NCBI GenBank assembly: GCA_039807145.1
Contig: JBDHQQ010000001.1
Span: 800 to 64,799, forward strand
DNA from: Pseudoxanthomonas sp.
Lineage (GTDB): Bacteria > Pseudomonadota > Gammaproteobacteria > Xanthomonadales > Xanthomonadaceae
Direction: 5' to 3'
Length of the DNA stretch: 64,000 nt
The translations under genes and the position numbers were made by a program. This document shows, one piece after another, positions 39,551 through 61,497 of the stretch; position 1 is the first letter of the stretch, and the number at the start of each line of letters is the position of its first letter. The notes under the pieces were generated by a model. It searched no databases. It was not told the DNA's origin and saw only the letters and a list, made by a program, of their open reading frames with translations.

Positions 39551-41287
39551 ATGAAGCGGTTCGCGCTTGCATTCGTGCTGTTGGCGGCCGCGTTGCCGGG
39601 GCAGGCGGACGATGCGCCGCGCGTGTCGGACGCGACCACGATGGAACAGGCGGGGATGGTCGACATCCGCAGCCTGGTGCCGGACATCTCGCAGTCGATC
39701 GCCTATGCCGGCAGCGACAATTTCGTGGGCGTACCGGTCGACGGCTACCAGGCGCCGCGCTGCTGGCTGAAGCGCGAGGCCGCCGAGGCGCTGGCGCGGG
39801 TCGATGCCGCGCTGCGCCAGCGCCACATGCGCCTGCGCGTGTTCGACTGCTACCGACCGGCGCGTGCGGTGGCCCATTTCGTGCGCTGGGCCAACGACCT
39901 TGGCGACCAGCGCACCAAGGCCGTGCATTACCCGAACCTGGACAAGTCGCAGCTGCTCAATGGCTATATCGCGGCGGTGTCCGGCCACAGCAGGGGCGGC
40001 ACCGTCGATCTCACCGCGCTGCAGTGCGATGCGGATGATGCGAATTGCGAGCCACTGGAAATGGGCACCGACTTCGATTTCTTCGGCACCCTCGCCAACA
40101 CCGATTCGCCGGAAGCGACAGAGAGGCAACGCGCCAATCGCCAAGTGCTGCTCAAGGCGATGGACGAGCAGGGATTCAGCAACTACCCGCTGGAATGGTG
40201 GCATTACAGCTTCCGCTTCCAGCCGCCTCTGGAAACCCTCTACGACGTGCCGGTGACCGCCCCCGGCGAGCCTGCGCGGCAGGCCGAAATCGACCGCCTG
40301 ATGCGGCCCTATGACGGCGAAGTCCCGGGTGCCTCGCTGCTGGTGCTGAAGGACGGCAAGGCCCTGGTCCGTCGCGGCTACGGACGTTCCGACCTCGAGC
40401 GGCACGTCGAGGCGGGGCCGGCGACCAACTACCGGCTCGCCTCGGTGACCAAGCAGTTCACCGCGGCGGCCGTGCTGCTGCTGGCGCAGGACGGCAAGCT
40501 CGCCATCGAGGATCCCGTGCGCAAGTGGCTGCCGGAACTGCCGAAGGCCGCGGACCGGATCACCGTGCGCAACCTGCTCGACCATACCGGCGGCCTGTTC
40601 GATTACGAAGACCTGATGGCCAAACCATATGAAGGCCAGATCAGCGATGCGGGCGTACTCGCGCTTCTGGCAAGAAAGGACGAGTTGTACTTCCCGCCGG
40701 GCAGCACCTATCGCTACAGCAACAGCGGTTACGCGATGCTGGCGCTGGTGGTGGAACGCGCCTCGGGAAAGAGTTTCCCCGAATTCCTGCGCACCCGCAT
40801 CTTCGCGCCGCTGGGCATGCACGACACCCTGGCCTATGTCGTCGGCGGTCCCGACGTGGCGCACCGCGCCTGGGGCTACAGCAGGAAGGACGCTGGCTGG
40901 GAACGCACCGACCAGAATGCGTACAGCGCGGTGCTTGGCGATGGCGGCATCTATTCCAGCATCGACGACCTGGCGCGCTGGGATGCGGCGCTGTACGACG
41001 ACCGACTGCTCGGCGACGCGATGCGGGCGCAGGCCTTCGGCAAGCAGGTGCAGGTCAGCAGCGGACCGGAGGCGACGTACTACGGTTATGGCTGGCGCGT
41101 CACCGAAAGCGGAGACCGGCAATGGCATTCCGGCGAGAGCATCGGTTTCCGCAATACGCTGGTGCGTTGGCCGAAGCAGCGCTTGACCGTGATCCTGTTG
41201 AGCAACCGCAACGATCCGACGCCGTACGAAACCGCGATGGCGATCGGTGCGTTGTTCCTCGACGACGGCCCGGCCGCGGCGCGCTGA
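39551..41287 (+). CDS. Exported fusion: M15D D-Ala-D-Ala dipeptidase (VanX/DdpX-like) + beta-lactamase-family serine hydrolase
   Basis: Signal peptide; FDCYRP, SGHSRGGTVD, MGTDFDFF, EWWHY; then ASVTK (SxxK), YSN, HSG. Confidence 0.9.
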   Translation: MKRFALAFVLLAAALPGQADDAPRVSDATTMEQAGMVDIRSLVPDISQSIAYAGSDNFVGVPVDGYQAPRCWLKREAAEALARVDAALRQRHMRLRVFDCYRPARAVAHFVRWANDLGDQRTKAVHYPNLDKSQLLNGYIAAVSGHSRGGTVDLTALQCDADDANCEPLEMGTDFDFFGTLANTDSPEATERQRANRQVLLKAMDEQGFSNYPLEWWHYSFRFQPPLETLYDVPVTAPGEPARQAEIDRLMRPYDGEVPGASLLVLKDGKALVRRGYGRSDLERHVEAGPATNYRLASVTKQFTAAAVLLLAQDGKLAIEDPVRKWLPELPKAADRITVRNLLDHTGGLFDYEDLMAKPYEGQISDAGVLALLARKDELYFPPGSTYRYSNSGYAMLALVVERASGKSFPEFLRTRIFAPLGMHDTLAYVVGGPDVAHRAWGYSRKDAGWERTDQNAYSAVLGDGGIYSSIDDLARWDAALYDDRLLGDAMRAQAFGKQVQVSSGPEATYYGYGWRVTESGDRQWHSGESIGFRNTLVRWPKQRLTVILLSNRNDPTPYETAMAIGALFLDDGPAAAR

Positions 41288-41422
41288 CCGGAGTCGTCGG
41301 GCCGGGGCCCGATCATTATCCCATGGAGCGTCTCACGGCCAGGAAGGCGTCGTCAGTCACGAAAGGATTCCGGCCGGCTTTCCCGTCGGTTCATCCATCC
41401 ACCCTCCCTGTCAGGTGAGCTC

Positions 41423-44305
41423 ATGCACAATCCGCGAACCCCCCGATTGAACCTCCTGTGCGTCGCCGTACTGGCGATCATGGCGGCCCCAGCCGCCGCA
41501 CAGGACCAGAATGCCGGCTCGCCGGATACCACCACCACGCTCGACAAGGTCAGCGTCACCGGCTCGCGCATCAAGCGCACCGACGTGGAAGCCGCGCTGC
41601 CGGTGACCATCGTCAAGAAGGAGGAAATCGATGCGCAGGGCATCACCTCGGCCGAGCAGCTGCTGCAGTTCCTCAACATCGCCGGCAACGGCGCCGACGG
41701 CCTGACCTCGGCCGCCGTCGACATGGACCTGGGCGAGCTGCGCGGCACCGCCGGCGTATCCGGCGCCAACCTGCGCGGCCAGGGCTCCGACGCAACCCTG
41801 GTGCTGCTGAACGGCCGCCGCGTCGCGACCCACGGCCTGCGCGGCCAGGCGGTGGACCTGAACTCGATCCCGTTCCAGGCGATCGAGCGCGTCGAGGTGC
41901 TGCGCGACGGCGCCTCGGCGGTGTACGGCACCGACGCCATCGGCGGCGTGATCAACTTCATCACCCGCACCGACTACCAGGGCATCACCGTCAACGCCGG
42001 CTTCGACGTGACCCAGGAAGGCGGCGGCAACATCTACAACTACAGCGTCCTCGGCGGCATCGGCGACCTGGACACCGACCGCTGGAACGCCTGGGGCACG
42101 ATCAGTTACCGCCGCGCCGAGTTCCTGCGCAGCTACCAGCGCGACTTCGCCAACAGCTTCCAGCCCGACCGCGGCGTGTCGCCCGACACCCGCGGCACGC
42201 CGTTCGCCACCGTCACCAACGCCACCGGCGGCATCATCAACGGTTCGCTGGTCGATCCCGACGGCGGCGGCAACATGAGCAACGTCAACATCCTCAACCT
42301 GCCCGGCGGGGCGGGTTGCGAGAACGGCGGCGCCACCATGGGGCCGTACGACTACCGCTTGTGGGATGGCGCCAGCCTGAAGTACGCCTGCGCCTGGGAC
42401 TACCCGGCCGCGCAGCCGCTGCAACAGCCGCAGGACAGTGTGCAGGCCCTGGGCCGCGCGACCTTCAAGATCGGCGAGGGCCACCAGTTCTACGTCGAGG
42501 CGATGGGCTCGGAAGTGAAGGTCAGGCGCGAGTACGAGCCGCTGCAGCTCAGTTCCAGCGCATCGGCGACCTCCGTGCTCAATCCGAGCACCTGGTTCCC
42601 GCTGAACGCGAACACCCAGGCGACCTACGACGAGATCTTCGACGCATTGGCCGACTACTTCGGCACGGCCAACCTGGTGTACGGCAACAAGATCCCCTAC
42701 CGCTGGCGCTGCGTGCCCTGCGGCCCGCGCCAGATCGAGACCACCACCAAGGCCTACCGCATGCTGGCCGGAGTGGAGGGCAGCCTCGGCAAGTGGGACT
42801 ACGACGTGGGCGTGTCGCGCGCGTCCAGCAAGGCCGAGTCGGTGCTGGTCAACGGCTACTACTTCTCGAGCGGACTCCAGGAGGCGCTCGGCAGCGGCCT
42901 GCTGAACCCGTTCCTGATGCCGAACCAGCAGCAGAGCCCGGCCGCGCTGGCCGCGCTGCAGGCGGCGTCGGCCAGCGGCATCCACCTGTACGGCGGCGAG
43001 TCCACCGTCACCACGGTCGACGCCAGCTTCAGCGGCGGTCTCGGCTTCAGCCTGTGGGGCGGCGAGGTGCAACTGGCGACCGGCGTCGAGGCGCGGCGCG
43101 AGGAGTTCCAGTTCGCGGGCGAGCAGGTGCTGAACGGGCTGCCGCTGAACTACAGCACCATCTACCAGGCGCCGTTCGACGAAACCAGCGAACTGGACAA
43201 GGTGCACCGCGACGTCAAGGCGATCTACGCCGAAGCCTACCTGCCGATCGTCAAGACCCTGGACGTGACCCTGGCGGTGCGCCGCGACGAGTACGACACC
43301 TTCGGCGGCACCACCAATCCGAAGTACTCGTTCAAGTGGCAGCCGGTCGAATGGCTGGCGTTCCGCGGCGCGTACAGCACCGGCTTCAAGGCGCCCGAAT
43401 TCACCAAGCTGTTCGCCGGCGTGAACCGGGTGGAATACTTCGGCCGCGACCTGGTCGATCCGGCCAGCTGCCCCAGCGGCTCGGTCAACTCGTCGATACC
43501 GGGCTGCGAGATGATCCAGCCGACCATCACCACCGGCGGCAAGACCGACCTGCAGCCCGAGGAATCGAAGCAGAAGAGCCTGGGCCTGGTGTTCGCGCCG
43601 ACCGGCAACTTCAACGTCAGCCTGGACTGGTGGGAGATCGAGCGCATCAACACGATCCGCGTGCCGAACCTGGCGACCCTGACCGAAAACTACGACCTGT
43701 TCTCCGCCAACTGGATCCGCGACAGCAGCGGCAGGGTCGTCGAGATCGACCAGCGCTACATCAACTCCGGCGGCACCCTGACCCGCGGCATCGAGCTGGA
43801 CGCCAACCTGACCGGCGAGCTGGCCGGCGGGCGCTGGTACGTCAACCTCAACGGCAGCTACATCGACACCTTCAAGGAAAAGTCGCTGGCCAACCAGCCT
43901 TACGGCGACAACAAGGTGGGCGAGTACGTCCGCTTCTACAACCTGCCGCTGAAGTGGAAGCACACCCTGAGCTTCGGCTGGGCCAAGGGCGACTGGGCGC
44001 ACACGCTGACCCAGATCTACCGCGCCGGCTACAAGGACGAAGAACCGGTCAGCGTCGAAGGCGGTTCGTACACGCCGTCGGACTGGAACCCCGACGTCGA
44101 CGACTACATCACCTACAACTACAGCCTGAGCTGGACGGGCCTGCAGAACGCGAAGTTCACCCTGGCGGTGCGCAACCTGCTGAACACCGATCCGCCGTTC
44201 ACCGCGCACCAGGTCGACTACGCCTCGGGCGCTGCGTGGGAACCGCGCGTGGCCGATCCGCGCGGTCGTTCGTTCAACCTGATGGTCGAATACAAGTTCG
44301 ACTGA
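41423..44305 (+). CDS. TonB-dependent receptor
   Basis: Signal peptide, VSVTGSRIKR, NLRGQG..TLVLLNGRR, VEVLRDGASAVYGTDAIGGVINFI, C-terminal YKFD. Confidence 0.95.
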   Translation: MHNPRTPRLNLLCVAVLAIMAAPAAAQDQNAGSPDTTTTLDKVSVTGSRIKRTDVEAALPVTIVKKEEIDAQGITSAEQLLQFLNIAGNGADGLTSAAVDMDLGELRGTAGVSGANLRGQGSDATLVLLNGRRVATHGLRGQAVDLNSIPFQAIERVEVLRDGASAVYGTDAIGGVINFITRTDYQGITVNAGFDVTQEGGGNIYNYSVLGGIGDLDTDRWNAWGTISYRRAEFLRSYQRDFANSFQPDRGVSPDTRGTPFATVTNATGGIINGSLVDPDGGGNMSNVNILNLPGGAGCENGGATMGPYDYRLWDGASLKYACAWDYPAAQPLQQPQDSVQALGRATFKIGEGHQFYVEAMGSEVKVRREYEPLQLSSSASATSVLNPSTWFPLNANTQATYDEIFDALADYFGTANLVYGNKIPYRWRCVPCGPRQIETTTKAYRMLAGVEGSLGKWDYDVGVSRASSKAESVLVNGYYFSSGLQEALGSGLLNPFLMPNQQQSPAALAALQAASASGIHLYGGESTVTTVDASFSGGLGFSLWGGEVQLATGVEARREEFQFAGEQVLNGLPLNYSTIYQAPFDETSELDKVHRDVKAIYAEAYLPIVKTLDVTLAVRRDEYDTFGGTTNPKYSFKWQPVEWLAFRGAYSTGFKAPEFTKLFAGVNRVEYFGRDLVDPASCPSGSVNSSIPGCEMIQPTITTGGKTDLQPEESKQKSLGLVFAPTGNFNVSLDWWEIERINTIRVPNLATLTENYDLFSANWIRDSSGRVVEIDQRYINSGGTLTRGIELDANLTGELAGGRWYVNLNGSYIDTFKEKSLANQPYGDNKVGEYVRFYNLPLKWKHTLSFGWAKGDWAHTLTQIYRAGYKDEEPVSVEGGSYTPSDWNPDVDDYITYNYSLSWTGLQNAKFTLAVRNLLNTDPPFTAHQVDYASGAAWEPRVADPRGRSFNLMVEYKFD

Positions 44306-44337
44306 CGCCACGGGTCGCCGGACCCGACCTGCATCCA

Positions 44338-44363
44338 GCCGCCGCCGGGAAACCGGCGGCGGC
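44338..44363 (+). other. Intercistronic GC hairpin directly before the racemase RBS
   Basis: GCCGCCGCCGG-GAAA-CCGGCGGCGGC, no U-tract; GGAGG follows at 44366. Confidence 0.65.
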
Positions 44364-44375
44364 ATGGAGGAAGCC

Positions 44376-45617
44376 ATGCCAGACCACCATTCCGCCGCTT
44401 TCAGTCGCCGACAATTCATCGTGGCCGCCGCGGGGACGGCGCTGGCTGCGTCCATCGATGCGCAGGCTTCGCCGCTGCTCGGTCTGCCGGGCAGGCGCAA
44501 GGCGGGCGCGGCCAATTCCTGGATCGAGATCGATCCGGAAATCTTCGAGCACAACCTGCGCCTTACCCAGGCCGCCCTGACCGGCGGCGCGCGCGTCTGC
44601 GCGATCATGAAGGCCGACGCCTACGGCACTGGCATCGACCTGGTGATGCCCAGCGTGATCAAGGCGCGCCTGCCTTACGTCGGCATCGCCAGCACCGAGG
44701 AAGCGCGCATGGCCCGGGCCTGCGGCTACAAGGGCCGGCTGATGCGCGTGCGCGCGGCGACGCTGGACGAGGTCGCGGATGCGCTGCCGTACAGGGTCGA
44801 GGAACTGGTCGGCAATCTCGCGGCGGCGCAGGCCATCGGCGCGATGGCGCGCAAGCGCGGACGCACGCTGCCCGTGCACCTGGCGCTGAATTCGGCGGGC
44901 ATGAGCCGCAACGGCATTGAAATGAACGTCGAGCGGGGCCGGCAGGATGCCGTGGCGCTGGCGGAGATGGAAGGCCTGCGGATCGTCGGCATGATGACGC
45001 ACTTCCCGACCGAAGAGCGGGACGACATCGTGCAGGGCGTCGAGGCCTTCAAGGCGCAGACCGCCTGGCTGTTCGCCAACACCGCGCTGCGGCGCGAGGA
45101 TGTGATCCTGCACGCCGCCAATTCGTTCGCCGTGCAGAACATCCCCGAATCGCACCTGGACATGGTGCGTCCCGGCGGCATGCTGTACGGCTACGGCGGC
45201 ACGCCCAAGCCGCCGTTCGTGCACGTGGCGTCGTTCAAGTCGCGGGTGGCCTCGGTGCAGGCCTATCCGGCCGGCGACACGGTCAGCTACGACCGGACCT
45301 ATACGCTGAAGCGGGATTCGCTGCTGGCGAACATCCCGGTGGGCTATTCCGACGGCTACCGGCGCGCCTATTCCAACAAGGGCGCCATGCTGGTCCGCGG
45401 GCAGCGCGCGCCAGTGGTCGGCAGCGTCACCATGAACACCACGATGGTCGACGTGACCGACATCCCCGGCGTGCAGGCCGGCGACGAAGTGGTGATGTTC
45501 GGCCGGCAGGGCGACGAGCAGATCACCCAGGCGGAAGTCGAGAAGATCACCGGCGTGATCCTGGCCGACCAGTACACGGTCTGGGGCGCGACCAACCCGA
45601 AGATCCTGCGCCGCTGA
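44376..45617 (+). CDS. Tat-exported broad-spectrum amino acid racemase (BsrV-like, Alr family)
   Basis: SRRQFI twin-arginine signal; CAIMKADAYG, LMRVR, ALNSAGMSRNG, MTHFP, SYDRTY, GYSDGY, MNTTM. Confidence 0.88.
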   Translation: MPDHHSAAFSRRQFIVAAAGTALAASIDAQASPLLGLPGRRKAGAANSWIEIDPEIFEHNLRLTQAALTGGARVCAIMKADAYGTGIDLVMPSVIKARLPYVGIASTEEARMARACGYKGRLMRVRAATLDEVADALPYRVEELVGNLAAAQAIGAMARKRGRTLPVHLALNSAGMSRNGIEMNVERGRQDAVALAEMEGLRIVGMMTHFPTEERDDIVQGVEAFKAQTAWLFANTALRREDVILHAANSFAVQNIPESHLDMVRPGGMLYGYGGTPKPPFVHVASFKSRVASVQAYPAGDTVSYDRTYTLKRDSLLANIPVGYSDGYRRAYSNKGAMLVRGQRAPVVGSVTMNTTMVDVTDIPGVQAGDEVVMFGRQGDEQITQAEVEKITGVILADQYTVWGATNPKILRR

Positions 45618-45713
45618 GCGGACGCGCCCGCGAGTCCGTTCCGCCGGTGTACCGATGCTCCTGGCGGGATGGACGAATCGCGCCGCGTACCGCCTCCGGA
45701 GTAGAGTGCCGGG

Positions 45714-46964
45714 ATGCACGGCCGCGCAACCGACGACATCGCCCATCACGCCGCGCTGGATGCGCGCATGGTCAAGGCCGCGCGCGGGATCAAGCTGCTC
45801 AGCCTGGCAAGCTGGCCGGCCGCGACGCAGGCGGGATTCCTTGCCGATCTTGCGCGCGGACAGCCGGCGCCGCCGCAGGTCGAATACCCGAAGCACGACT
45901 TCACCGATGCGCGCCGCGAGCTGGACGCGATTTCCGCCGCGGCCGACCCGGCGCACCCGCTGGGCGTATATGTGCGCGAATCGGCGCACGCCTGGAATCT
46001 CGCCGCGCAATTGCTCGAGGCGTTGGGCACGCCGGTGGCGTCGACGCTGTCGGTCGAACTGTTCGGCCGGCCCGACGCGCCGCTGCCCGGCAACGGGCCC
46101 AGCACCCGCGAAGCGGCGCAACATTTCATCCAGATCGCCGGCGAACTGGACCACGAGCTGCTCGCACCCGAGGAACAGGTGCCGGTATCGGCCACCGCAT
46201 TGCAGCTGCAGCTGCAAGGCGATCTCGACGATTTCTTCGACAGTCGCGTGATCACGGTGGAGCTGGATCCGGACCTGATCGCCAAGGCCGCGGCCGGCGC
46301 GACCCGCATCCGCCTGCGCAGCGGCGCGGCGTTCTGCGACTACGACCGCCGCCAGCTGTTCTTCCACGAGGCGCTGGTGCATTCGCTGACCGCGCTCAAC
46401 GGCCGCGAGCAGGCCAACCTGCCCAGCCTGGCGCTGTCGTCGCCGCGCGTCACCGAAACCCAGGAAGGCCTGGCCACCTTCGCCGAACAGATCACCGGCA
46501 GCATCGACATCGGCCGGATGAAGCGCATCAGCCTGCGCATCGAGGCCATCGCGATGGCGCTGGACGGCGCGGATTTCGTGCAGGTGTTCCGCTATTTCCG
46601 CGATGCGGGGCAGGGCGACGCGGAAAGCTTCGCGTCGGCGCAGCGGGTGTTCCGCGGCGTACCAACCAGTGGCGGCATGGCTTTCGCCAAGGACACGGTG
46701 TACCTGCGCGGACTGATCAACGTGCACACCTTCTTCCGCCAGTGCCTGCAGCAGGACCGCCTGCCGCTGTGCCGCTGGCTGTTCGCCGGCAAGATGACCC
46801 TCGGCGACGCGCGCGCGTTCGCCCCGCTGTTCGAATCCGGCACGCTGGCCGTGCCGCGCTGGCTGCCCGAATGGGCCGAGCGCGCCAGCGGCCTGGCCGG
46901 CATGCTGGCGTTCTCGCTGTTCGCCAACCGCATCAGGCTGGAGCGCCTGTCGGCAGAAGGTTGA
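45714..46964 (+). CDS. QEGLA-motif (DUF1704) putative zinc metallopeptidase
   Basis: FHEALVHSLT (HExxxH), TETQEGLATFAE, RVFRG, KDTVYLRG. Confidence 0.88.
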   Translation: MHGRATDDIAHHAALDARMVKAARGIKLLSLASWPAATQAGFLADLARGQPAPPQVEYPKHDFTDARRELDAISAAADPAHPLGVYVRESAHAWNLAAQLLEALGTPVASTLSVELFGRPDAPLPGNGPSTREAAQHFIQIAGELDHELLAPEEQVPVSATALQLQLQGDLDDFFDSRVITVELDPDLIAKAAAGATRIRLRSGAAFCDYDRRQLFFHEALVHSLTALNGREQANLPSLALSSPRVTETQEGLATFAEQITGSIDIGRMKRISLRIEAIAMALDGADFVQVFRYFRDAGQGDAESFASAQRVFRGVPTSGGMAFAKDTVYLRGLINVHTFFRQCLQQDRLPLCRWLFAGKMTLGDARAFAPLFESGTLAVPRWLPEWAERASGLAGMLAFSLFANRIRLERLSAEG

Positions 46965-47142: not shown

Positions 47143-48045
47143 TCATGCCGTGCGGCCGCCGCGGACTTCGCCGAGCACCTTGGAGAACATCGAGATGAAA
47201 TGGGTAGCCGCCGTGGAGGGCGGGCGGTCTTCCAGATGCACGCACTGCACCTTGAAGCGCAACGGAGGCGTGAATGGACGGAAGCCCGTCTCATCGTTGA
47301 TGCTGGCGCGCGCGGTGAACTCGTCCACCACCGCCATGCCGGCGCCGCAGCGGGTCAGCGCGGCGGCCACGTAGAACGTCTGGTTGGACACTGTTTCGCG
47401 CACGCTGATGCCCTGGCGCCGGAGCTCGCGGTTGAACAGATCGCCCACCGGGCCGCCTGCGGTCAGTCCGACCATGTCGTGGCCATGGAGCTGCTTGAGA
47501 GGAACGCGTTCGGCGGCATTGGGCATGTTGTCCTTGCGGTACAGCAGGCACAGCTCCGCGATGTCGAGGTCCCGCCGGCGGAAGCGCGGGTGCGAAGGCG
47601 GGTCGTATGCGATGGCAATGTCGCTGGTGCGTTCGTAGAGCGATTCGAACAGGTCGTCGTGGTGCAGCGTCTGCACCTCGAAGGTCGTATCCGGGTAACG
47701 CTTGCGAAAGCGGGTGATGGCCAGTGGGGCCACGTGCAGGCCCAGCGACGGCACCACGGCGAGCCGGATGTGGCTGGCCGAAGGATTGCGCAGGTTGCCG
47801 ATGTTCTTCTGCAGCGAGGTCAGGCGATTGAAGACTTCCGAAACGTCGATGAAAAGCGCATGCGCTTCTTCGGTGGCGACCAGGCGGCCTCGCACCAGCC
47901 GGAACAATTCCAGTCCCAGCTGCTGCTGGGTGTGGTGCAGCACCTTGCTCACGGAGGGCTGCGAAACGTGCAGCGCCCGCGCAGCCGCGCTGATCGAACC
48001 GGTGGTATAGACGGCGTGGAAGACTTCGATCTGTCGGAAACGCAT
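47143..48045 (-). CDS. LysR family transcriptional regulator
   Basis: MRFRQIEVFHAVYTTGSISAAARALHVSQPSVSKVL HTH; 300 aa. Confidence 0.95.
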   Translation of the reverse strand: MRFRQIEVFHAVYTTGSISAAARALHVSQPSVSKVLHHTQQQLGLELFRLVRGRLVATEEAHALFIDVSEVFNRLTSLQKNIGNLRNPSASHIRLAVVPSLGLHVAPLAITRFRKRYPDTTFEVQTLHHDDLFESLYERTSDIAIAYDPPSHPRFRRRDLDIAELCLLYRKDNMPNAAERVPLKQLHGHDMVGLTAGGPVGDLFNRELRRQGISVRETVSNQTFYVAAALTRCGAGMAVVDEFTARASINDETGFRPFTPPLRFKVQCVHLEDRPPSTAATHFISMFSKVLGEVRGGRTA

Positions 48046-48105
48046 GCTCTTGCCGAATAAGGGCTCGAGGACAGTATCGCCGCCGCGCCCGCCCATGTCC
48101 CGTGC

Positions 48106-49957: not shown

Positions 49958-49972
49958 ATAGCCGGGGGTTAT
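49958..49972. promoter_or_regulatory. Putative LysR box between the divergent ggt genes
   Basis: ATAGC-CGGGG-GTTAT (reverse: ATAAC-N5-GCTAT, T-N11-A); weaker copy at 50058-50072. Confidence 0.7.
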
Positions 49973-51909: not shown

Positions 51910-51919
51910 TCGCGCCGGC

Positions 51920-51934
51920 ATAACCTTGCGCTAT
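51920..51934. promoter_or_regulatory. Putative LysR box upstream of TBDR2
   Basis: ATAAC-CTTGC-GCTAT. Confidence 0.7.
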
Positions 51935-55000: not shown

Positions 55001-55130
55001 CCGCCTGACGGTGCGCAACATCGCCGACCGCGATCCACCGCTGACCCCGAGTGCGCTGGGCTTCAATTCCTCGTTGCACAATGCCCTGGGCCGCGGTTAC
55101 TACCTGACGGTGACCAAGAACTTCGATTGA
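52050..55130 (+). CDS. TonB-dependent receptor
   Basis: Signal peptide, VVVVGSHL, NLRNLGTGNTLLMVNGRR, GASALYGSDAVAGVVN, C-terminal KNFD. Confidence 0.95.
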   Translation: MHRRLIKQTLLSVVLGAMVQGMAFAQQKPATEESGQAKPATAQDLDGVVVVGSHLASSREEGPSPVLVMDEAAIEATGAISGDELLQAIPQVGDMMFNNTDTAANINAARGDVGSINLRNLGTGNTLLMVNGRRMVPHPGTQTESLVPRQTANMNAIPLFGTRRVETLLGGASALYGSDAVAGVVNVVLDTTFQGLQVQGQYGGSEGIDFRQGNLNFKAGKWFNDGRTRATLVGGWTHRSDLPADARDYSRNMDRREQMDGTDFEGVTAFDDTITGTAWGVFQTIGNVAVRNANNTLITNSSGQFHVDPVGLHNCTAGLNDDVCIMSGTQSTTIDRPLRFSPNHQRRILGGLDRMNLFGTLEQDIDDNFVAFGEVSYYQSRYEGMREQAASLAAAPMIVSRNNYYNPFGAMYRADGSLNPYRLAGINAPQEGLDVRLSTYRATDTSRPYTVDDEQYRVLAGVRGTLGGFDWESAVLYSAATTEDTQYGSISNSLFAEALGWNTPDAYNPFYGGNLEDWRAPKDSGQNQAAIDYFTVPVVRKSKATLFQVDTRFIREDLFSLPAGNVGVAFGAEWRRESLDDDRDARLDGTITYTNPLTGAITSDVLGASPSGDNSGDRNVGSLYAEFAVPLVSPSMGIPLVRSLELQVAGRYERYSDFGGVTKPKVALAWDIAEGLMARASWSQSFLAPNILQMYSEGTTVSNTRTDYYVCEADIRKGTIDGVHRCTRSYSTTAIRSGNRDLKPETAETWSAGFVFKPTFLPKSTRLTFSADYFKIQQEDVIGILGEATQLALDYLLRMQGSYNPAVVRLDPDEARIALFEGTGLAPVGTVDHVEDTYINRLPRTTRGIDFGIDWRQRTENAGTFNTSLNATRLIEMTQNATADELRIIEAQQSGLIDDNFDIRNAGNLLGVDGRPTWRATLSSSWRKGDWSLGTFINYIGKFESTGAVSNTGNYFQVPSWTTANLWVEHRFDDTKTIFDGTRIRLTVRNIADRDPPLTPSALGFNSSLHNALGRGYYLTVTKNFD

Positions 55131-55143
55131 CCGGCTCCCCGTC

Positions 55144-55191
55144 GCCCGCGCCGTCGCCCGGTATCCGGTTGGCGGCGCGGGCGTTTTTCTT
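55144..55191 (+). terminator. Hairpin plus T-tract after TBDR2
   Basis: GCCCGCGCCGTC...GGCGGCGCGGGC followed by GTTTTTCTT. Confidence 0.65.
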
Positions 55192-55246
55192 GCCGCACGG
55201 CACGGGCCGGTCGGCGCGTCAACCGTCCACCTCACCGGAGGCAACC

Positions 55247-56422
55247 ATGAACCGATGCATCCGCCGTCACCGCACACTCTCGCTCTGCGCGGCTTTTTTG
55301 TTGCTCCTGCTCAGCCTGCCGGCGCTGGCCGGCGAGATCGAGGATCGGCTGCAGTCGCTGATGAAGGAATACGACACCGTCGGCCTGGCGGTGGTGGTGG
55401 TCCGCGACAACGGCGTCGTGTACCGCAACAGCTTCGGCTGGAAGGATCGCGATGCGAAGATCCCGCTCGAACAGGACGACCTGTTCCGGATCGCATCGAT
55501 CTCCAAGTCGTTCGCGGCGGTTTCGATCATGCAGCTGGTCGAGCAGGGCCGGCTGTCGCTGGACGATGACGCCGGCAAGCTGGTCGGGTTCCCGGTGCGC
55601 AACCCCGCGTTCCCGGACACGCCGATCACCCTGCGGATGTTGCTGAACCACACTTCGTCGATCACCGATGCGCAGCAGTACAAGAGCCTGGACATCATCA
55701 ACCCGGCCACCAACGAAAACTGGCGGGGCAGCTATGCCGGCCGCGCGCCGGGCGAAAGCTACGAATACTCCAACCTCGGCTACAACATGGTCGGCACCAT
55801 CGTCGAGCGCGTGTCGGGGCAGCGTTACGACGCCTACGTCGGGCAGCACGTGCTGGATCCGCTCGGGCTGCGGGCCGGCTACCTGCCCGATGCGCTGGAT
55901 GCGGGCCGTTTCGCGCAGATCTATTCGTGGAACGAGGCGCGACAGGATTACGTGCGTTCCGAGGCGGCCTATGCGCCGCTGGGCAAGCGCCTGGACGGCT
56001 ACCGCATGGGCTACGACACGCCGATGTTCTCCCCGACCGGCGGGCTCAAGATCTCCGCGCCCGACCTGGCCACCTGGATGCTGATGCACATGAACCGCGG
56101 CGAGTGGAACGGCGTGCGCCTGCTCTCGGTCGAACATGCGAAGCGGATGCAGACGCGCTCGACCTCCGTCGATGAAAACGGCGACTACGGCTTGGCCATC
56201 CGTTTGGAGCGGGCGCTGATCCCCGGCGTGGAAATGATCGGGCACACCGGCTCGGCCTACGGCCTGTTCAGTTCGATGTACTTCAATCCGGAAAAGAAGT
56301 ACGGCTTCGTGGTGATCACCAACGGGACCCGCGACGTGCAGGTGCGCACCGAGGTCAACCGGGCCCTGTACCAGCATTTCATCGTCGATGCGGCGGGACA
56401 GCGGGCGCAGGTGTCGAAGTAA
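55247..56422 (+). CDS. Exported beta-lactamase-family serine hydrolase (D-stereospecific peptidase-like)
   Basis: Signal peptide, FRIASISK, LLNHTS, YSN, GHTG. Confidence 0.88.
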   Translation: MNRCIRRHRTLSLCAAFLLLLLSLPALAGEIEDRLQSLMKEYDTVGLAVVVVRDNGVVYRNSFGWKDRDAKIPLEQDDLFRIASISKSFAAVSIMQLVEQGRLSLDDDAGKLVGFPVRNPAFPDTPITLRMLLNHTSSITDAQQYKSLDIINPATNENWRGSYAGRAPGESYEYSNLGYNMVGTIVERVSGQRYDAYVGQHVLDPLGLRAGYLPDALDAGRFAQIYSWNEARQDYVRSEAAYAPLGKRLDGYRMGYDTPMFSPTGGLKISAPDLATWMLMHMNRGEWNGVRLLSVEHAKRMQTRSTSVDENGDYGLAIRLERALIPGVEMIGHTGSAYGLFSSMYFNPEKKYGFVVITNGTRDVQVRTEVNRALYQHFIVDAAGQRAQVSK

Positions 56423-56535
56423 GGCGCCTCATGCCGGCGAATGCCGGATGCCTGTCGGAGCGGACCAGGCCTTCGTCGGCCGATCCATCCATGGGTTCCT
56501 CCGGCGGGCGGGAGCTTCGGGCCCGCCGCCGCCGA

Positions 56536-57729
56536 TCACTTCCAGAAGTTGATGAACCCGGTGATGATGATCGCGTTGGTGAAGTCGATGAAGAACGCGC
56601 CCACCAGCGGCGCGACGAGGAAGGCGCGCGGGGCGGCGCCGTAGCGTTCGACCAGGGTACGCATCACCGCCATCGCATTCGCGGTGGTGCCGAGCATGAA
56701 GCCGATGAAGCCGCCGCCCATCACCGCTGCGTCGTAATCGCGGCCCATCATCCGGAAGATCACCCCGCAGAACGCGACCACCATCACCACCTGCAGGCCC
56801 AGGTTGACCATCAGCGGCAGCGCCAGTCCGGCCAGTTCCCACAGCTTCAGGTTCATCAGCGCCACCGACAGGAACAGCGCCAGGCAGACGTTGCCGATCA
56901 GGTCGGTGGTCGGTACCGACATGCCGATCCAGCCGGTCTGGTCGTCGATGTTGCGGATCACCGCGCCGACCAGCATTGCGCCGACGTAGGCGGGTAGCGT
57001 GATCCCGGTGGCGGAGATCAGGTTGCTGACCCAGCTGCCCGCCCACATCGCGACGAGGATGACGACGATGCTCTTCAGCGCGCCGAATTCGCGTTGCGCA
57101 TCGGTCTGCACGGGCAGCGTGGTTTCTTCGCCGGGCGCGGTGTGGTCCTGCGGCCGCGTGGATACCAGCTGGAAGCGGCGGATCATCACGGTGATCGCGG
57201 GGCCGCCGACCAGCCCGCCGAGAACGATGCCCGCCATCGCCGAGGCCACCGCGATCGATTCGGCGCCCTTCACCCCTGCCGCTTCGAACAGCGGTGCGAA
57301 TGCCAGCCCGGTGGCGGGTCCGCCGGTCAGCGTGGTCGAACCTGCCAGCACGCCAAACAAGGGCGGCAGGTCGAAGCCGGCCGCCACCGCCATGCCCAGC
57401 AGGTTCTGCGCCACCGCGAACACGGTGGCCAGGGCCAGGAAGACCAGCACCTGTTTGCCGCTGATCTTCAGCAGGCGCAGGCTGGCGTTGACGCCGATGG
57501 TGGTGAAGAACGCGATCATCAGCGGGTTCTGCAGGCTGGTATCGAGCACGAACAGCGTGGTGCCGCGGCCGTGCGCGAACCATGCCGCCAATGCGAAGAC
57601 CAGGCCGCCGATGACCGGCGGCGGCAGGTTGTAGCGACCGAGCACCGGAATGACGCGACACAGTGCGTAACCCAGGAACAGGGCAAGTCCGGCGAAAGCC
57701 AGGGTCTGGACGGCGTCGAGTTGCAGCAT
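56536..57729 (-). CDS. gltS: Sodium/glutamate symporter
   Basis: YNLPPPVIGG, AFFTTIG, GSTTLTGG, LGTTANAMA, AFLVAPLVGAFFIDFTNA. Confidence 0.9.
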   Translation of the reverse strand: MLQLDAVQTLAFAGLALFLGYALCRVIPVLGRYNLPPPVIGGLVFALAAWFAHGRGTTLFVLDTSLQNPLMIAFFTTIGVNASLRLLKISGKQVLVFLALATVFAVAQNLLGMAVAAGFDLPPLFGVLAGSTTLTGGPATGLAFAPLFEAAGVKGAESIAVASAMAGIVLGGLVGGPAITVMIRRFQLVSTRPQDHTAPGEETTLPVQTDAQREFGALKSIVVILVAMWAGSWVSNLISATGITLPAYVGAMLVGAVIRNIDDQTGWIGMSVPTTDLIGNVCLALFLSVALMNLKLWELAGLALPLMVNLGLQVVMVVAFCGVIFRMMGRDYDAAVMGGGFIGFMLGTTANAMAVMRTLVERYGAAPRAFLVAPLVGAFFIDFTNAIIITGFINFWK

Positions 57730-57779
57730 TGGGCTTCCTCGGTTTTACCCGGATGGTACCTGCATACGGGATGCGACTG

Positions 57780-59450
57780 TTACGGACAGCTGCCGGCGGG
57801 CGGTCGATGTTGCAACACCTTGCCCGGCAGCGCGTCCGTTGCACGGCCGTCGACGATGGTTGGCGTGCCATTGACGAACAAATGGACGACGCCTTGCGAA
57901 AGCACGTGCGGATGCACGTAGTCGGCCCTGGGTGCGTAGGCATCCGGATCGAAGACCAGCACGTCGGCGAACTGTCCCGCACGCAGGAAGCCGCGATCCT
58001 CGAGGCCGAAGGTAGTCGCTGCCAGGCCGGAAGAGCGGTGGATGAACGCGGCCAGGTCGATCACGTGGTCGGTCTTCACGAATCGCGCGTACTTCTCGGG
58101 GAAGGTCGCGTACTGGCGCGGATGGCCGTCGCCGCCGTCCGACGCGGTCATCACCCACGGCTGGCGCATGAAACGGTCGACATCGTCGCGGCGCATGTTG
58201 AACGAAGCGATTCGCTGTGCCGAGCCGGTCGGTCCGGTGCCGCCTTCGCTGATGATGCGCACCGCGGCCTCGATGGGATCGATCCCCGATTGGTCGGCAT
58301 GGCGCTGCAGGGTGAGCGCGCTCCATGGCCAGCCGCTGCCGGTCATCAGGATCGAATCGGCGCCGCCGCGGCGCTTGAGGTTGTCGCGCATCTCGTCGCG
58401 GATGCGTGCGGCGGTGGCGGGGTCGGCGAGGCGCCTGAACAGCGCCGGGCGTCCTCCGTCCACGGCCCAGCGCGGCAACAGCGCCGCGCCCAGGCCGGTC
58501 GAGGACGCGAGCCACGGATACTGGTCGGCGGTCACCTGTTGTCCTTCGGCGCGCGCGCGTTCGATGCGCGCGATCACGTCGCCGGATCGGCCGTGCACGT
58601 CCGCGCCCAGCGCCTTGATGTGGGCGAAGTGCACCGGAATGCCGGCGCGCCTGCCGATCTCCAGCGTTTCCTCGACGGAACCCATCAGGCCTATCGTGTA
58701 GCTGGATTCGTCGCGCTGGTGGGTGTCGTACACGCCGCCGCGCACCGCGGCCTCGCGGGCCAGTGCGACCACTTCGTCGGTCGTGGCGAAACTCTGCGGC
58801 GCATAGAACAGGCCGGTGGACAGGCCCAATGCGCCTTCGCACATCGCGGTGGCGACCAGGCCGCGCATCGTCCGCAGTTCCTCTGCGTCGGGCGCGCGCG
58901 CATCCTGGCCAAGCACCTGCGTGCGCACGGGGCCCAGGCCCACGTAGGCGGCAACGTTGGGGCCGATGCCTTGGGTCTGCAATTGCGCGCGATCGGCGGC
59001 GATATCGGGTTTGCCGTTGCCGTCGATGCCGATGAAGATCGTGGTCACGCCCTGGTGCAGCCACGGCAGGACGCGCCGCATCGCCGGATCCTGCGAGCGC
59101 AGGTAGGTCTCGGGATGGGTATGCGGATCGATGAGGCCGGGCGACACGACCAGGCCGCTGGCGTCGATCTCGCGCCTGGCGTGATAGCGCTGGCGCAGCC
59201 CGGGGCCCACTTCGAGGATGCGGTCGCCACGGAGGGCGATGTCGGCGATCCGGCCTCCGGTTTCGCCGCCATCGAACAGCAGGCCGCCGAAGATCAGCGT
59301 GTCGGCCTCGGCGGGGCGGGTTGCCGTGTCCTGCGCCACGCGCGGGCTGGCGCAGCCGGCGAGCAGCAACAGGGCGGCGGAGAGCGATCGTGCCAATCCG
59401 CGCTGCGGCGATAGGGTCTTCGGCGTGCGGGAGGGCTGGCGATCGGTCAT
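57780..59450 (-). CDS. N-acyl-D-amino-acid deacylase family lipoprotein
   Basis: LLLLAGC lipobox; PGLIDPHTH, GLSTGLFY.P, THQRDE, HFAHIK, DQYPW, ASDG, HPRQYATFP. Confidence 0.88.
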   Translation of the reverse strand: MTDRQPSRTPKTLSPQRGLARSLSAALLLLAGCASPRVAQDTATRPAEADTLIFGGLLFDGGETGGRIADIALRGDRILEVGPGLRQRYHARREIDASGLVVSPGLIDPHTHPETYLRSQDPAMRRVLPWLHQGVTTIFIGIDGNGKPDIAADRAQLQTQGIGPNVAAYVGLGPVRTQVLGQDARAPDAEELRTMRGLVATAMCEGALGLSTGLFYAPQSFATTDEVVALAREAAVRGGVYDTHQRDESSYTIGLMGSVEETLEIGRRAGIPVHFAHIKALGADVHGRSGDVIARIERARAEGQQVTADQYPWLASSTGLGAALLPRWAVDGGRPALFRRLADPATAARIRDEMRDNLKRRGGADSILMTGSGWPWSALTLQRHADQSGIDPIEAAVRIISEGGTGPTGSAQRIASFNMRRDDVDRFMRQPWVMTASDGGDGHPRQYATFPEKYARFVKTDHVIDLAAFIHRSSGLAATTFGLEDRGFLRAGQFADVLVFDPDAYAPRADYVHPHVLSQGVVHLFVNGTPTIVDGRATDALPGKVLQHRPPAGSCP

Positions 59451-60457
59451 GCGTGGCTGGTTCCGTGCGGGCGTTTGCCGCCGCCCCAAAGTGTTGCGTC
59501 CGGTGGTTGCAGCAGGCCGTCGCGCATCACCGCGCCGCCGGGATGGTCGTGTTTCAGCCACAGCGGGCCGTCGAGGTCGACGAATTCGGCGTGGCGGGCG
59601 ACGTGCCATGCCGGCGCGATCGCCAGCGACGAGCTGATCATGCAGCCGACCATGATGCCGAAACCCTGCGCGCGCGCTGCGTCCAGCAGTTCCAGTGCGC
59701 CGGTCAGGCCGCCGGTCTTGTCCAGCTTGATGTTGACCACCTGGTAGCGTCCGCGCAGGCGCGGCAGGTCGGCGGCGACATGGCAGGATTCGTCGGCGCA
59801 CAGGCGTGCGACCGAGTCGAAACCGGACAGGGCTTCGTCTTCATCGGCGGGCAGCGGCTGCTCGATCAGGTCGATGCGGGTTTCGGCCAGCGCCGGCTGC
59901 AGCGACTGCAGCAGTTCGAGGTTCCAGCTCTCGTTCGGATCGACGATCAGGCGCGCCTTCGGCAACGCACTGCGCACGGCGCGGATCTGCGTGGCCGGAT
60001 CGGTGGCATCGACCTTGATCTTGACCAGGTCCAGATGGGCCAGCGCGCGTGCGGCGGCGGCCATGCGTTCGGGCGAATCCAGGCCCACGGTCTGGGCGCT
60101 GACCAGCGGCGGCAGCGTCCCGGACTGGCCGAGCATCGCGGCGACGGAGACGGATTGCCGCTGCGATTCCAGGTCCCACAGGGCGCAATCGAGCGCATTG
60201 CGCGCGGCGCCCGGGGGAAGCAATTCGCCCAGCTGGCGGCGGTCGAGGCCGTTGGCGATGGCATTCGACAGCGTGTTCGCCTCGTCGAGCACCGATTCCA
60301 CGCTCTCGCCATAGCGCGCATAGGGCAACGACTCGCCGCGGCCGGTGAATTCGCCGCTGCGGATCGTCGCCTCCACCACCTCGGTGGAGGTGCGTACGCC
60401 GCGCGAGATGCGGAACGGCGTGGCGAGCGGATGGCTGACGTGCGCCAGTTTCAGCAC
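59447..60457 (-). CDS. dgcA: N-acetyl-D-glutamate racemase / L-Ala-D/L-Glu epimerase (enolase superfamily)
   Basis: PFRISRG, AARNALDCALWDL, KIK, VDPNE, IEQP, ADES, NIKLDKTGG, GCM, DLDGP; GTG start overlaps the dgcN stop. Confidence 0.85.
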   Translation of the reverse strand: MLKLAHVSHPLATPFRISRGVRTSTEVVEATIRSGEFTGRGESLPYARYGESVESVLDEANTLSNAIANGLDRRQLGELLPPGAARNALDCALWDLESQRQSVSVAAMLGQSGTLPPLVSAQTVGLDSPERMAAAARALAHLDLVKIKVDATDPATQIRAVRSALPKARLIVDPNESWNLELLQSLQPALAETRIDLIEQPLPADEDEALSGFDSVARLCADESCHVAADLPRLRGRYQVVNIKLDKTGGLTGALELLDAARAQGFGIMVGCMISSSLAIAPAWHVARHAEFVDLDGPLWLKHDHPGGAVMRDGLLQPPDATLWGGGKRPHGTSHA

Positions 60458-61497
60458 GGGAACAGTTCCTGCAGCCGGTCGATGATGCGTTCGGTGCCGT
60501 CGCGTACCGGGTCCTGCGCGGGCAGGCCGAGCAGGTCTTCGGCTTCGCGACAGGCGCGCCGTGCCTCTTCCGCGGACAGCTTTGCGGTATTGAGGGCCAC
60601 GCCGACCGCGACCACTGCGGGATTGGTGAGGCGCGCGGTGGCCAGGTTCGCTTCCAGCGTGGTCTTCAGATCCGGTACCGGGTAATGCTTCAGCCCGCGC
60701 ATGTGCGGGCGGCCCGGCTCGTGGCACAGCACCAGCGCGTCGGGCTGGGCCCCGTGCAGCAGGCCGGTCGACACGCCCGCGAAGGAGGGATGGAACAGCG
60801 AACCCTGGCCTTCGATCAGGTCCCAGCCGTCGTCGTGGCGGTCGGGCGATAGCCATTCGATGCCGCCGGAGATGAAGTCGGCGACCACCGCATCGATCGG
60901 AATGCCGCGTCCGGCCACGAAGATGCCGGTCTGTCCGGTGGCGCGGAAATCGGCCTTCAGGCCGCGTGCGCGCATTTCCGTTTCCAGCGACAGCGTGGTG
61001 TACATCTTGCCCGTCGAACAATCGGTGCCGACGGTCAACAGGCGCCGCCCGGCGCGCTTGAGGCCATTGCCGACCGGCGTGTGCGGGGGAGTGCGGGCAT
61101 CGAACAGGTGCTTGCCGTTGCGGCGTGCGGCCTCGACGATTTCCGGGTGCATGCTCAGGCGTTCGTGCAGGCCGGAGGCCACGTTCATGCCGGCGTCGAG
61201 TGCGGCGACGATGTCCGTCACCGACTCGGGGCCGAGACGGCCGCCGGCGTTGGCCACGCCGACGATCATGGTATTGGCGCCGGCCGCGCGCGCCTCGGCG
61301 AAGCCCATGTCCGGTACCGGCACGCTGGTCTTGCACTCGGGGCCGCGAAACTGGCCCACGCACCAGTCGGGCCGGAACTGCGCCAGGCCGCGCGCGGTCT
61401 TGGCCGAGAGATCGTCGGGCGCATTGCCCAGGTACAGCAGGAACGGCGGGGGCCAGGTCGAGTCGTCAAGGGTGGCGGGCTGGGGAAGCGGATTCAT
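60451..61497 (-). CDS. dgcN: D-glutamate N-acetyltransferase (DUF1611 family)
   Basis: FLLYLG...AKTA.G, GVANAGG, ASGLH, VGTDCSTGKM, ATGQTG, EGQGSLFHP, LLHGAQPD. Confidence 0.88.
   Translation of the reverse strand: MNPLPQPATLDDSTWPPPFLLYLGNAPDDLSAKTARGLAQFRPDWCVGQFRGPECKTSVPVPDMGFAEARAAGANTMIVGVANAGGRLGPESVTDIVAALDAGMNVASGLHERLSMHPEIVEAARRNGKHLFDARTPPHTPVGNGLKRAGRRLLTVGTDCSTGKMYTTLSLETEMRARGLKADFRATGQTGIFVAGRGIPIDAVVADFISGGIEWLSPDRHDDGWDLIEGQGSLFHPSFAGVSTGLLHGAQPDALVLCHEPGRPHMRGLKHYPVPDLKTTLEANLATARLTNPAVVAVGVALNTAKLSAEEARRACREAEDLLGLPAQDPVRDGTERIIDRLQELFPC

Follow-up and report, generated by a model that had tools for sequence, protein, structure and literature searches.

This report concerns a window of 64,000 nucleotides, the whole stretch of Pseudoxanthomonas sp. 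DNA that was analysed, and within it the interval between rsgA (37908-39020, plus strand) and dctA (61740-63074, plus strand), which holds 13 intact open reading frames (ORFs). Nine of these, running from lysR to dgcN, likely constitute one regulon for harvesting D-glutamate (D-Glu), judging from gene content, conservation and upstream sequences. We call these nine genes (lysR, ggt1, ggt2, tbdr2, S12b, gltS, the D-acylase gene, dgcA and dgcN) module B. Three others, encoding a VanX-S12 fusion, the TonB-dependent receptor (TBDR) TBDR1 and a racemase, form module A, which appears to be separate from module B.

Genes and features of the interval

A sequence-only reading had placed 13 genes, nearly all of D-amino-acid or gamma-glutamyl families, between rsgA and dctA. 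This description holds, in that the frames are intact and each family label is backed by Pfam or NCBIfam profiles. NCBIfam cut-offs are passed by DgcN, DgcA, GltS, the racemase, QEGLA and the gamma-glutamyltransferase (GGT) GGT2. For GGT1, for the VanX domain and for the D-acylase, the assignment is at the level of the family, with catalytic motifs intact, as they also are in both S12 domains, QEGLA, the racemase and GGT2. Six enzymes had further been said to carry export signals, and the same number is seen when the translations are read by eye: Sec-type signals in VanX-S12, GGT2 and S12b, a Tat-like signal (SRRQF) in the racemase, and lipoboxes in GGT1 (LTAC) and the D-acylase (LAGC). Rather than a single operon, the 13 genes make up five or more transcription units, with members on either strand. 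Their GC content, both overall and at third codon positions (GC3), agrees with that of the flanking DNA.

39551..41287, plus strand: fusion of a VanX-like (M15) D-Ala-D-Ala dipeptidase and an S12 peptidase, predicted to be exported, module A (profiles; motifs SGHSRGGTVD, EWWH, SVTK, YSN, HSG)
41423..44305, plus strand: TonB-dependent receptor TBDR1, module A (profile)
44376..45617, plus strand: broad-spectrum-type pyridoxal phosphate racemase with Tat-like signal, module A (NF009879, score 492 against a cut-off of 434; motifs)
45714..46964, plus strand: QEGLA/MATCAP metallopeptidase, with no export signal (TIGR02421, 348 against 339; Pfam MATCAP)
47143..48045, minus strand: LysR regulator, module B (start set by homology; the open frame reaches 48096)
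48106..49851, minus strand: GGT1, predicted lipoprotein, module B (TIGR00066, 324, under the cut-off of 358)
49958..49972, no strand: LysR-type box ATARC-N5-GYTAT in the divergent ggt1/ggt2 interval (pattern)
50170..51909, plus strand: GGT2, predicted to be exported, module B (TIGR00066, 490 against 358)
51920..51934, no strand: LysR-type box upstream of TBDR2 (pattern)
52050..55130, plus strand: TonB-dependent receptor TBDR2, module B (profile)
55247..56422, plus strand: S12 serine peptidase S12b, predicted to be exported, module B (profile)
56536..57729, minus strand: GltS Na+/glutamate symporter, module B (TIGR00210, 328 against 311)
57780..59450, minus strand: D-acylase, an amidohydrolase lipoprotein with N-acyl-D-amino-acid deacylase fold, module B (fold; motifs)
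59447..60457, minus strand: DgcA, N-acetyl-D-Glu racemase family, module B (NF042940, 438 against 400)
60451..61497, minus strand: DgcN, D-Glu N-acetyltransferase family, module B (NF041892, 514 against 480)
61584..61598, no strand: LysR-type box upstream of the dgcN-dgcA-dac-gltS operon, where dac is the D-acylase gene (pattern)

Co-conservation of module B

The genome that contains the window is about 85% complete, and its relatives are named Lysobacteraceae. In a search of genome contigs for GGT2, the best 80 of 264 candidates yielded 77 loci, of which 39 contain GGT2 orthologues (59-87% identity) from Luteimonas, Pseudoxanthomonas, Stenotrophomonas and Lysobacter/Novilysobacter. Because they derive from the best 80 of 264 candidates, these 39 loci are a floor. 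Our conservation counts refer to them, while the other 38 loci served as controls or outgroups. Flanks were extended for nine of the 39, and several gene misses correspond to contig ends.

Among the 39 loci, gltS and lysR are each present in 38, ggt1 in 36, the D-acylase gene in 31, an orthologue of TBDR2 (at least 60% identity) in 26, S12b in 23, dgcN in 22, dgcA in 21 and QEGLA in 16. The sequence-only reading had proposed to look for co-conservation around dgcN and dgcA; the TBDR, the GGTs, the D-acylase and GltS are strongly co-conserved there, and it is the idea of the 13 genes as one set that does not survive. GGT2 is found in 4 of the 78 genomes of the window's genus; this scarcity and the grouping of the window's GGT2 with Luteimonas sequences (see below) hint that module B may have been acquired by transfer.

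The interval between rsgA and dctA or maeB varies widely in content, and may hold minimal dgc genes (rsgA-lysR-gltS-dgcA-dgcN), module A alone, or an unrelated D-acylase/GntP cluster. It could therefore be supposed that the interval is no more than a hot spot at which catabolic genes with no relation to each other have been inserted, and this does account for modules A and B standing side by side. We regard this explanation as very improbable for module B itself, which also occurs at other chromosomal sites and in other gene orders, where it retains its gene set and its box.

The membership of QEGLA in the module is uncertain. It has no box upstream, and a sequence search for a solved structural relative found none. 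A lipoprotein resembling the M14 carboxypeptidases CCP/Nna1 is encoded beside 13 loci (e.g., L098:3225-4538), always in loci with dgc and never in loci of the dehydrogenase type described below; its best matches are bacterial CCPs and human CCP5, and it was not found in the window's own genome. Relatives of CCP and MATCAP act as deglutamylases in eukaryotes.

A putative operator

The box ATARC-N5-GYTAT, a T-N11-A palindrome of the form typical of LysR regulators, was spotted by eye ahead of ggt1/ggt2, tbdr2 and dgcN. Exact matches in 2.68 Mb of the genome are confined to these three sites in the window, but this count is circular because the pattern was derived from those same sites, and if one mismatch is allowed, 6 of 100 shuffles of the window reach three sites. 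The relatives offer an independent test: 36 of the 39 loci contain a total of 69 exact boxes, 67 of which are intergenic by our in-house gene calls. Moreover, the box tracks the head of the minus-strand operon, standing before dgcN, before the D-acylase gene if dgc is absent, and before gltS if the D-acylase gene is absent too. We propose that ATARC-N5-GYTAT is a putative operator common to the transcription units of module B.

A weight matrix of the box scores above 20 near 8 of 15 loci that lack GGT2 and have a dgcN of the window's type, and near none of 24 distant dgcN loci. The box therefore marks D-Glu catabolic genes even where no GGTs are encoded, and D-Glu is likely the effector of the LysR regulator.

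Alternative sinks for D-glutamate

Every one of the 39 loci encodes a candidate sink for D-Glu: 21 have dgcN only, 17 a dehydrogenase only, one has both and none has neither. Among cultured type strains, Luteimonas marina and L. padinae exemplify the dgc type and Pseudoxanthomonas daejeonensis the dehydrogenase type, and P. yeongjuensis has both sinks. The window, where no dehydrogenase of the module B type was found, is an additional dgc-only case. In loci without dgcN, the gene for a DadA-like flavin adenine dinucleotide (FAD) dehydrogenase lies between ggt1 and lysR. A genome-wide search found this dehydrogenase in 18 of the 39 genomes, and 10 of those 18 gave no dgcN anywhere. According to PMC10845958 and PMC12363236, DgcN-DgcA turns D-Glu into L-Glu, and therefore a gene that replaces this pair probably removes the same product. 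That each locus has dgcN or the dehydrogenase points to D-Glu as the product.

The pairing with a dehydrogenase recurs in Sphingomonas, in the order lysR-dad-tbdr-dac-DAACS-ggt2, and in two other gammaproteobacterial loci (dehydrogenases 37-41% identical). A search for the dehydrogenase in 300 class-wide genomes gave two matches, both in the same family. Its best match among plasmids is 51.5% identical and has no name, and a protein search returned generic names only.

The adjacent dgcN and dgcA of the window, whose products both score over their family cut-offs, resemble the DgcN-DgcA pathway reportedly described by Yu et al. in 2023 (ISME J 17:537). They differ from it in that the pair belongs to an operon with the D-acylase gene and gltS, at one end of it, inside a regulon with a TBDR and GGTs, and in the replacement by a dehydrogenase noted above. 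We considered and rejected the identification of DgcA as a dipeptide epimerase of the YcjG type, because it scores below the cut-off for L-Ala-D/L-Glu epimerase (311 against 343) and a separate epimerase is encoded elsewhere in the genome. A further comparison is with the dguRABC genes of Pseudomonas aeruginosa, reportedly described by He et al. in 2014, which to our knowledge include no GGT, TBDR or D-acylase gene. Loci of the dehydrogenase type similarly pair LysR with an FAD D-amino-acid dehydrogenase, whereas the window has no such enzyme. In the D-Glu catabolism of P. aeruginosa, the LysR-type regulator DguR controls dguA (PMC10926688).

Other arrangements of dgc genes were also observed. 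A second dgcN-dgcA pair in this genome (contig C13:200-4293; 48% and 46% identical) lies beside a LuxR-type gene. Its relatives have a DAACS carrier, a TBDR, a DmpA/S58 peptidase and a class A beta-lactamase-like protein alongside, and no box was found near them. In a third type (L006-L007, L010-L011, L016-L017, L038, L072, L074 and L075), an XRE-like regulator, S12, dgcA, a POT carrier, a D-acylase, a TBDR, dgcN, a permease and S12 occur together. There are also dgcN genes without an adjoining dgcA (L008, L012, L023, L067, L026, L064, L076 and L108), and in four cases lysR and a DUF885-type gene come after dgcN. Finally, L094, L096, L105, L114 and L167 have a neighbouring cluster of Rid, a short D-acylase, RpiR, GntP and a pyridoxal phosphate enzyme, which is unrelated to module B; this short D-acylase is close to KleDacyl and OngB.

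Pockets of the two gamma-glutamyltransferases

Residues are numbered here as in Escherichia coli GGT. PMC8062742 assigns the donor carboxylate site to R114, S462 and S463 and the alpha-amino site to N411, Q430 and D433, and reports that the D433N change confers acylase activity towards a donor lacking the amino group. GGT2 retains R114, T391, S462 and S463 and carries E115S, N411G, N428G, Q430L, D432G and D433N in all 39 orthologues as well as in the window, so that Gly, Leu and Asn stand for the canonical alpha-amino residues N411, Q430 and D433. With the alpha-amino site lost and the carboxylate site kept, GGT2 suits N-blocked (amino-acylated) gamma-glutamyl donors.

GGT1 has the full canonical pocket (Thr nucleophile, R114, S462/S463, an acidic/amide alpha-amino site and the Gly-Gly oxyanion hole) in 36 of 36 orthologues. 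It has Glu at the Asn411 position, as does Bacillus GGT, which is its best solved match. The lid is absent from GGT1: the segment from D433 to S462 measures 21 residues (20-24 in orthologues) versus 29 in the E. coli type, and is 2 residues longer than in B. licheniformis GGT. In PMC8062742, an absent lid is associated with hydrolysis of polyglutamate, and B. subtilis GGT is an exo-enzyme that frees L- and D-Glu. From the pockets we infer that the donors of GGT2 would be amino-acylated (polyglutamate or L-Ala-gamma-D-Glu-X) and those of GGT1 would have a free amino group. A third GGT is encoded elsewhere in the genome, unlinked. In a quick unrooted tree, the window's GGT2 clusters with Luteimonas sequences and not with two copies from the same genus.

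The Bacillus pair of PgdS and a lid-less GGT (PMC8062742) resembles the window in the lid-less GGT1 with Glu at the Asn411 position; the window's system differs in being Gram-negative and TonB-coupled, in having no pgsB in the genome, and in having a second GGT type instead of PgdS. Class IV cephalosporin (glutaryl-7-ACA) acylases naturally have Asn for Asp433 (same source), whereas GGT2 has further invariant changes and its context is D-Glu, not glutarate. The sequence-only reading had pointed to CapD, a GGT-family enzyme that cleaves gamma-D-glutamyl bonds. GGT2 does share with B. anthracis CapD the GGT family, Asn at 433 and a small residue at 411. CapD, by contrast, keeps E115 and Q430, has Thr-Phe at 462-463, lacks the lid and belongs to a cap operon, and GGT2 is closer to E. 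coli GGT than to CapD. By pocket residues neither GGT1 nor GGT2 is CapD, and their context is not a cap operon.

The D-acylase and S12b

The D-acylase has the family fold (TM about 0.8 against both D-acylases and the D-Glu enzyme; model pLDDT 91.8) and keeps the metal histidines, the catalytic Asp and the Tyr and Arg of the carboxylate site. Asp replaces the bridging Cys, which is a hallmark of subtype V; PMC12149444 describes active cluster-B D-acylases without this Cys and ties Arg295 to D-Glu specificity. The motif NLxRRGG, invariant in 29 of 29 sequences, meets the Arg295 site only across a 37-residue insertion, and an ungapped count gives Leu there. The fold, metal histidines, catalytic Asp and Tyr/Arg are thus shared with Bb3285 (N-acyl-D-glutamate deacylase) and the D-acylases of that paper, while the window's enzyme differs in being a lipoprotein, in the Cys-to-Asp change of the cluster-B type and in the insertion in the specificity domain. 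Export of the D-acylase, if the lipobox is correctly read, would separate it from cytoplasmic N-acetyl-D-Glu. The nearest solved relatives of S12b are Pab87 and alkaline D-peptidase.

Module B might instead serve other D-Glu compounds, such as D-Gln, small gamma-D-glutamyl amides, N-acyl-D-Glu or non-ribosomal peptides that contain D-Glu, with an activity that is broad and not specific to a polymer. The evidence for D-Glu from the box, the sink exchange and the weight matrix applies identically to them. Furthermore, bacterial GGTs accept D-Gln as a donor (PMC8062742), S12b resembles D-stereospecific peptidases, and the loop of lid length in GGT2 suits small donors. However, a TonB receptor is not required for D-Gln or D-Glu in free form, for which there are already minimal lysR-gltS-dgcA-dgcN loci, and no single compound of this kind accounts for both types of GGT pocket. 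We consider this alternative unlikely.

Occurrence beyond Lysobacteraceae

A core of lysR, TBDR and GGT2-like genes with the box is also present in sphingomonads and low-GC marine Gammaproteobacteria. We scanned metagenomes with a Sphingomonas GGT2-like protein as query and obtained 80 loci, 71 of them under 45% GC; the loci include many near-copies, and at 90% they reduce, together with the window, to 43 clusters. Among the GGT sequences of these loci, 75 of 82 combine Asn at 433 with either Gly or Ser at 411, an enrichment that stems partly from the search patterns. Where lysR and a TBDR gene are paired in low-GC loci, the box lies between them in 14 of 19 cases exactly and in 18 of 19 with one mismatch, and all 750,600 low-GC bases contain 18 exact boxes. 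Three clusters among the low-GC loci (L184, L192, L198, L208, L224 and others) are named Gammaproteobacteria bacterium, and we take the gene style of the low-GC loci to be reminiscent of SAR86. On a Sphingomonas-like contig (L174:13418-15481), a CapA/PGA_cap-domain protein is encoded directly after lysR-dad-TBDR-GGT2-GGT1.

Beside the 71 low-GC loci there are TBDR-family genes in 46, M20 hydrolases in 28, DASS carriers in 27 and DAACS carriers in 20, and no dgc or dehydrogenase gene was found in the low-GC marine stretches fetched. These dicarboxylate-type carriers and hydrolases, with no D-Glu sink in view, are consistent with an explanation in which the donors of the GGTs are L-configured or lack an amino group (glutathione and its conjugates, folyl-polyglutamates, glutaryl or 2-oxoglutaryl amides), with the D-Glu genes as mere passengers under shared regulation. 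The canonical pocket of GGT1 also fits, as does D433N, the cephalosporin-acylase substitution (PMC8062742). Against it are the D-specific sinks in 39 of 39 Lysobacteraceae loci, in a Sphingomonas locus and in two other gammaproteobacterial loci, and the fact that the genome already has a third, unlinked GGT. We would assign this explanation a low probability, slightly below that of other D-Glu compounds.

Module A and a separate stem-peptide locus

The sequence-only reading treated the 13 genes as one system, a view that we rejected in favour of two modules. Module A adjoins module B in 8 of the 39 loci, and no box was found upstream of module A in the window or in the module A loci scanned (best score 10.9, versus 24-27 for the window sites), nor any other shared upstream motif. 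An orthologue of TBDR1 (at least 68% identity) occurs in 9 of the 39 genomes with module B, adjoining it in 8 of the 9, and the other 30 genomes gave none. The racemase is present in 9 of 78 genomes of the genus, 7 of which lack GGT2; several genomes of the genus have module A at the rsgA site and no GGT2 module. The VanX half of the fusion has SxHxxGxAxD-like and ExxH motifs, scores under the VanX and DdpX equivalog cut-offs, and is missing in several orthologous loci.

Paralogues of TBDR1 (61-65%) lie at most 17 kb from an L-Ala-D/L-Glu epimerase gene in 14 of 19 cases, and five such loci that we fetched contain NlpC/P60, S12 and VanX, with amidases and diaminopimelate (DAP) decarboxylase in some. 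Therefore, module A looks like an offshoot of a wall-peptide locus to which a periplasmic racemase was added. Module A likely handles wall peptides that contain D-Ala, to judge from its families. A periplasmic racemase of this type has a catabolic role in Pseudomonas putida (PMC6034422).

Indeed, this genome has a second TonB-linked locus (contig C141:5916-11242), with NlpC/P60, L-Ala-D/L-Glu epimerase, RpiR/MurR, a lipoprotein without Pfam domains and a DAACS carrier. In relatives (L251-L265), loci of this type add a transglutaminase-like protein, one to three TBDRs, amidases, DAP decarboxylase, S12 and VanX. From its gene content, it is a better candidate for stem-peptide utilisation than the window's locus, and our full-text literature search found no paper describing it. 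Profile searches found no amidase, NlpC/P60 or MpaA, and no L-Ala-D/L-Glu epimerase among the 13 genes of the window. On another contig (C195:2100-11662), a paralogue of TBDR2 (43%) is followed by three exported hydrolase-like genes, which are possibly a related peptide locus.

It is nonetheless possible, and only slightly less probable than the reading that we prefer below, that modules B and A together harvest D-Glu from the stem peptides of peptidoglycan. In this case GGT2 might cut L-Ala-gamma-D-Glu off meso-diaminopimelate (mDAP) or Lys, the D-acylase might split L-Ala-D-Glu, and GGT1 might cut gamma-D-Glu-mDAP; the D-Ala end would fall to VanX, S12 and the racemase. L-Ala-gamma-D-Glu-X is exactly an N-blocked gamma-D-Glu donor, the marine distribution fits, and the adjacency of TBDR1 to module B, where it occurs, and the company kept by its paralogues point the same way. 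In addition, peptidoglycan is the main use of D-Glu (PMC12363236). On the other hand, module A lacks the box, TBDR1 was not found in most module B genomes, and module B encodes no amidase, NlpC/P60, LD-carboxypeptidase or transporter for Ala, mDAP or peptides. L-Ala-D/L-Glu epimerase is encoded at a separate locus in 37 of 40 genomes, the window's included, and its route bypasses free D-Glu; two GGTs and a D-acylase would be redundant for a defined tetrapeptide.

The substrate of module B

Considering the preceding evidence, we think it highly probable that module B sets D-Glu free from a gamma-D-glutamyl compound of some kind and consumes it. To this extent the proposal of the sequence-only reading, which favoured stem peptides, is supported; its choice of stem peptides is weakened by the separate locus with NlpC/P60 and epimerase. 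The alternative that it mentioned, poly-gamma-glutamate, fits module B at least as well. Our tentative preference, which we would place somewhat short of even, is that oligomers of poly-gamma-D- or DL-glutamate from other bacteria are the main substrate, a choice that stands narrowly ahead of stem peptides.

For polyglutamate, TBDR2 would import gamma-glutamyl oligomers. GGT2, without a site for a free alpha-amino group, would cut internal (N-blocked) gamma-Glu bonds, the lid-less GGT1 would take off Glu at the end with the free amino group, and the D-acylase would free the C-terminal D-Glu. The D-Glu so freed in the periplasm would be carried inward by GltS and inverted by DgcN and DgcA. These are predicted activities, as are the effector and the substrate, set beside an observed gene set, co-conservation, box, sink exchange and pocket residues. 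The apparent endo (GGT2) and exo (GGT1) logic, the relatives of glutamate-trimming carboxypeptidases nearby, the CapA/PGA_cap-domain protein of one metagenome locus and the separateness of the stem-peptide locus would favour polyglutamate. We also count in its favour that module B has a Glu carrier as its sole transporter of the inner membrane; in E. coli, GltS transports D-Glu. Polyglutamate made by the host itself was rejected as the substrate, because PgsB was not found in the genome.

It is important to emphasize that several observations weigh against the interpretation given here. The polyglutamate endo-hydrolase family PF05908 (PghP-type) has no match in the 85%-complete genome, which leaves the first cut outside the cell without a candidate enzyme. 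A loop of lid length (29 residues) is retained in GGT2, which by PMC8062742 would disfavour a bulky polymer, and GGT2 departs from CapD at E115, Q430, S462 and S463. Two observations speak for wall peptides: seven loci of a single clade lack TBDR2 and the D-acylase, with module A adjoining six of them, and in one locus (L078) genes for S11 and M23/SH3 wall peptidases have been inserted. Only one of all the loci fetched has the CapA-domain neighbour. Polyglutamate also seems a less evident food source for the low-GC marine core, in whose fetched stretches no sink was found. With regard to D-Glu itself, the quick GGT2 tree requires four changes of sink state, and for the dgc label well-supported branches impose three of them. 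Since this tree is unrooted and its labels lie in clusters, the sink exchange amounts to no more than three or four events rather than 39. The dehydrogenase resembles DadA but scores under family cut-offs. Finally, a fold search fails to separate D-acylases from the D-Glu enzyme, so the specificity of the D-acylase is not readable from sequence or fold.

Relation to known systems

Natural D-Glu is mostly bound in gamma-linked polymers, namely cell walls and polyglutamate. Cytoplasmic sinks for free D-Glu are known, and the locus adds to them a candidate receptor, an atypical GGT, a D-acylase, a carrier, an operator and two alternative sinks. Its parts come from known families, and the layout resembles the TonB-coupled polysaccharide utilisation loci (PULs) and CUT-type loci: a receptor, periplasmic hydrolases, an inner-membrane carrier, a regulator and cytoplasmic catabolism, in a module that is co-conserved and has a common putative operator. 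The difference is that the predicted substrate is a peptide or polyamide, and SusD-like and glycan enzymes are absent. What appears to be new, as far as the literature searched can tell, is the GGT subfamily without an amino site, the pair of GGTs, the box and the sink exchange. A full-text literature search, which left subscription papers that may describe neighbours of dgc mostly outside, found no paper that unites a TBDR, GGT and D-Glu catabolism, and no account of Gram-negative import and release of gamma-bound D-Glu. GGT2 would represent an uncharacterised subfamily, as no description was found in the literature searched.

More broadly, GGT2 may belong to a widespread subfamily that acts on N-blocked gamma-D-glutamyl bonds and that, together with a TonB receptor and an ancient D-Glu-sensing LysR box, forms the main Gram-negative route for mining D-Glu, in soil and in abundant low-GC marine Gammaproteobacteria; we offer this as a speculative possibility. 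If it is true, the system would be a polyamide counterpart of PULs, with the capsules or walls of other cells as source and an interchangeable D-Glu sink, and the marine metagenome core would bear on the turnover of organic matter rich in D-amino acids. The GGT without an amino site would be a natural version of engineered acylases and could serve as a biocatalyst.

Other observations in the window

A scan of the window for promoters gave none, and terminators were at chance level. A 21-base direct repeat, in two copies 30 bases apart (39176-39226), lies upstream of the VanX-S12 gene; no shared motif of its kind was found in orthologues. Two ORFs are in stretches of lower GC3: that at 35966-36508 (minus strand) is presumably a Coq7-type di-iron hydroxylase, and we take that at 24740-25408 (plus strand) to be possibly a transposase fragment.

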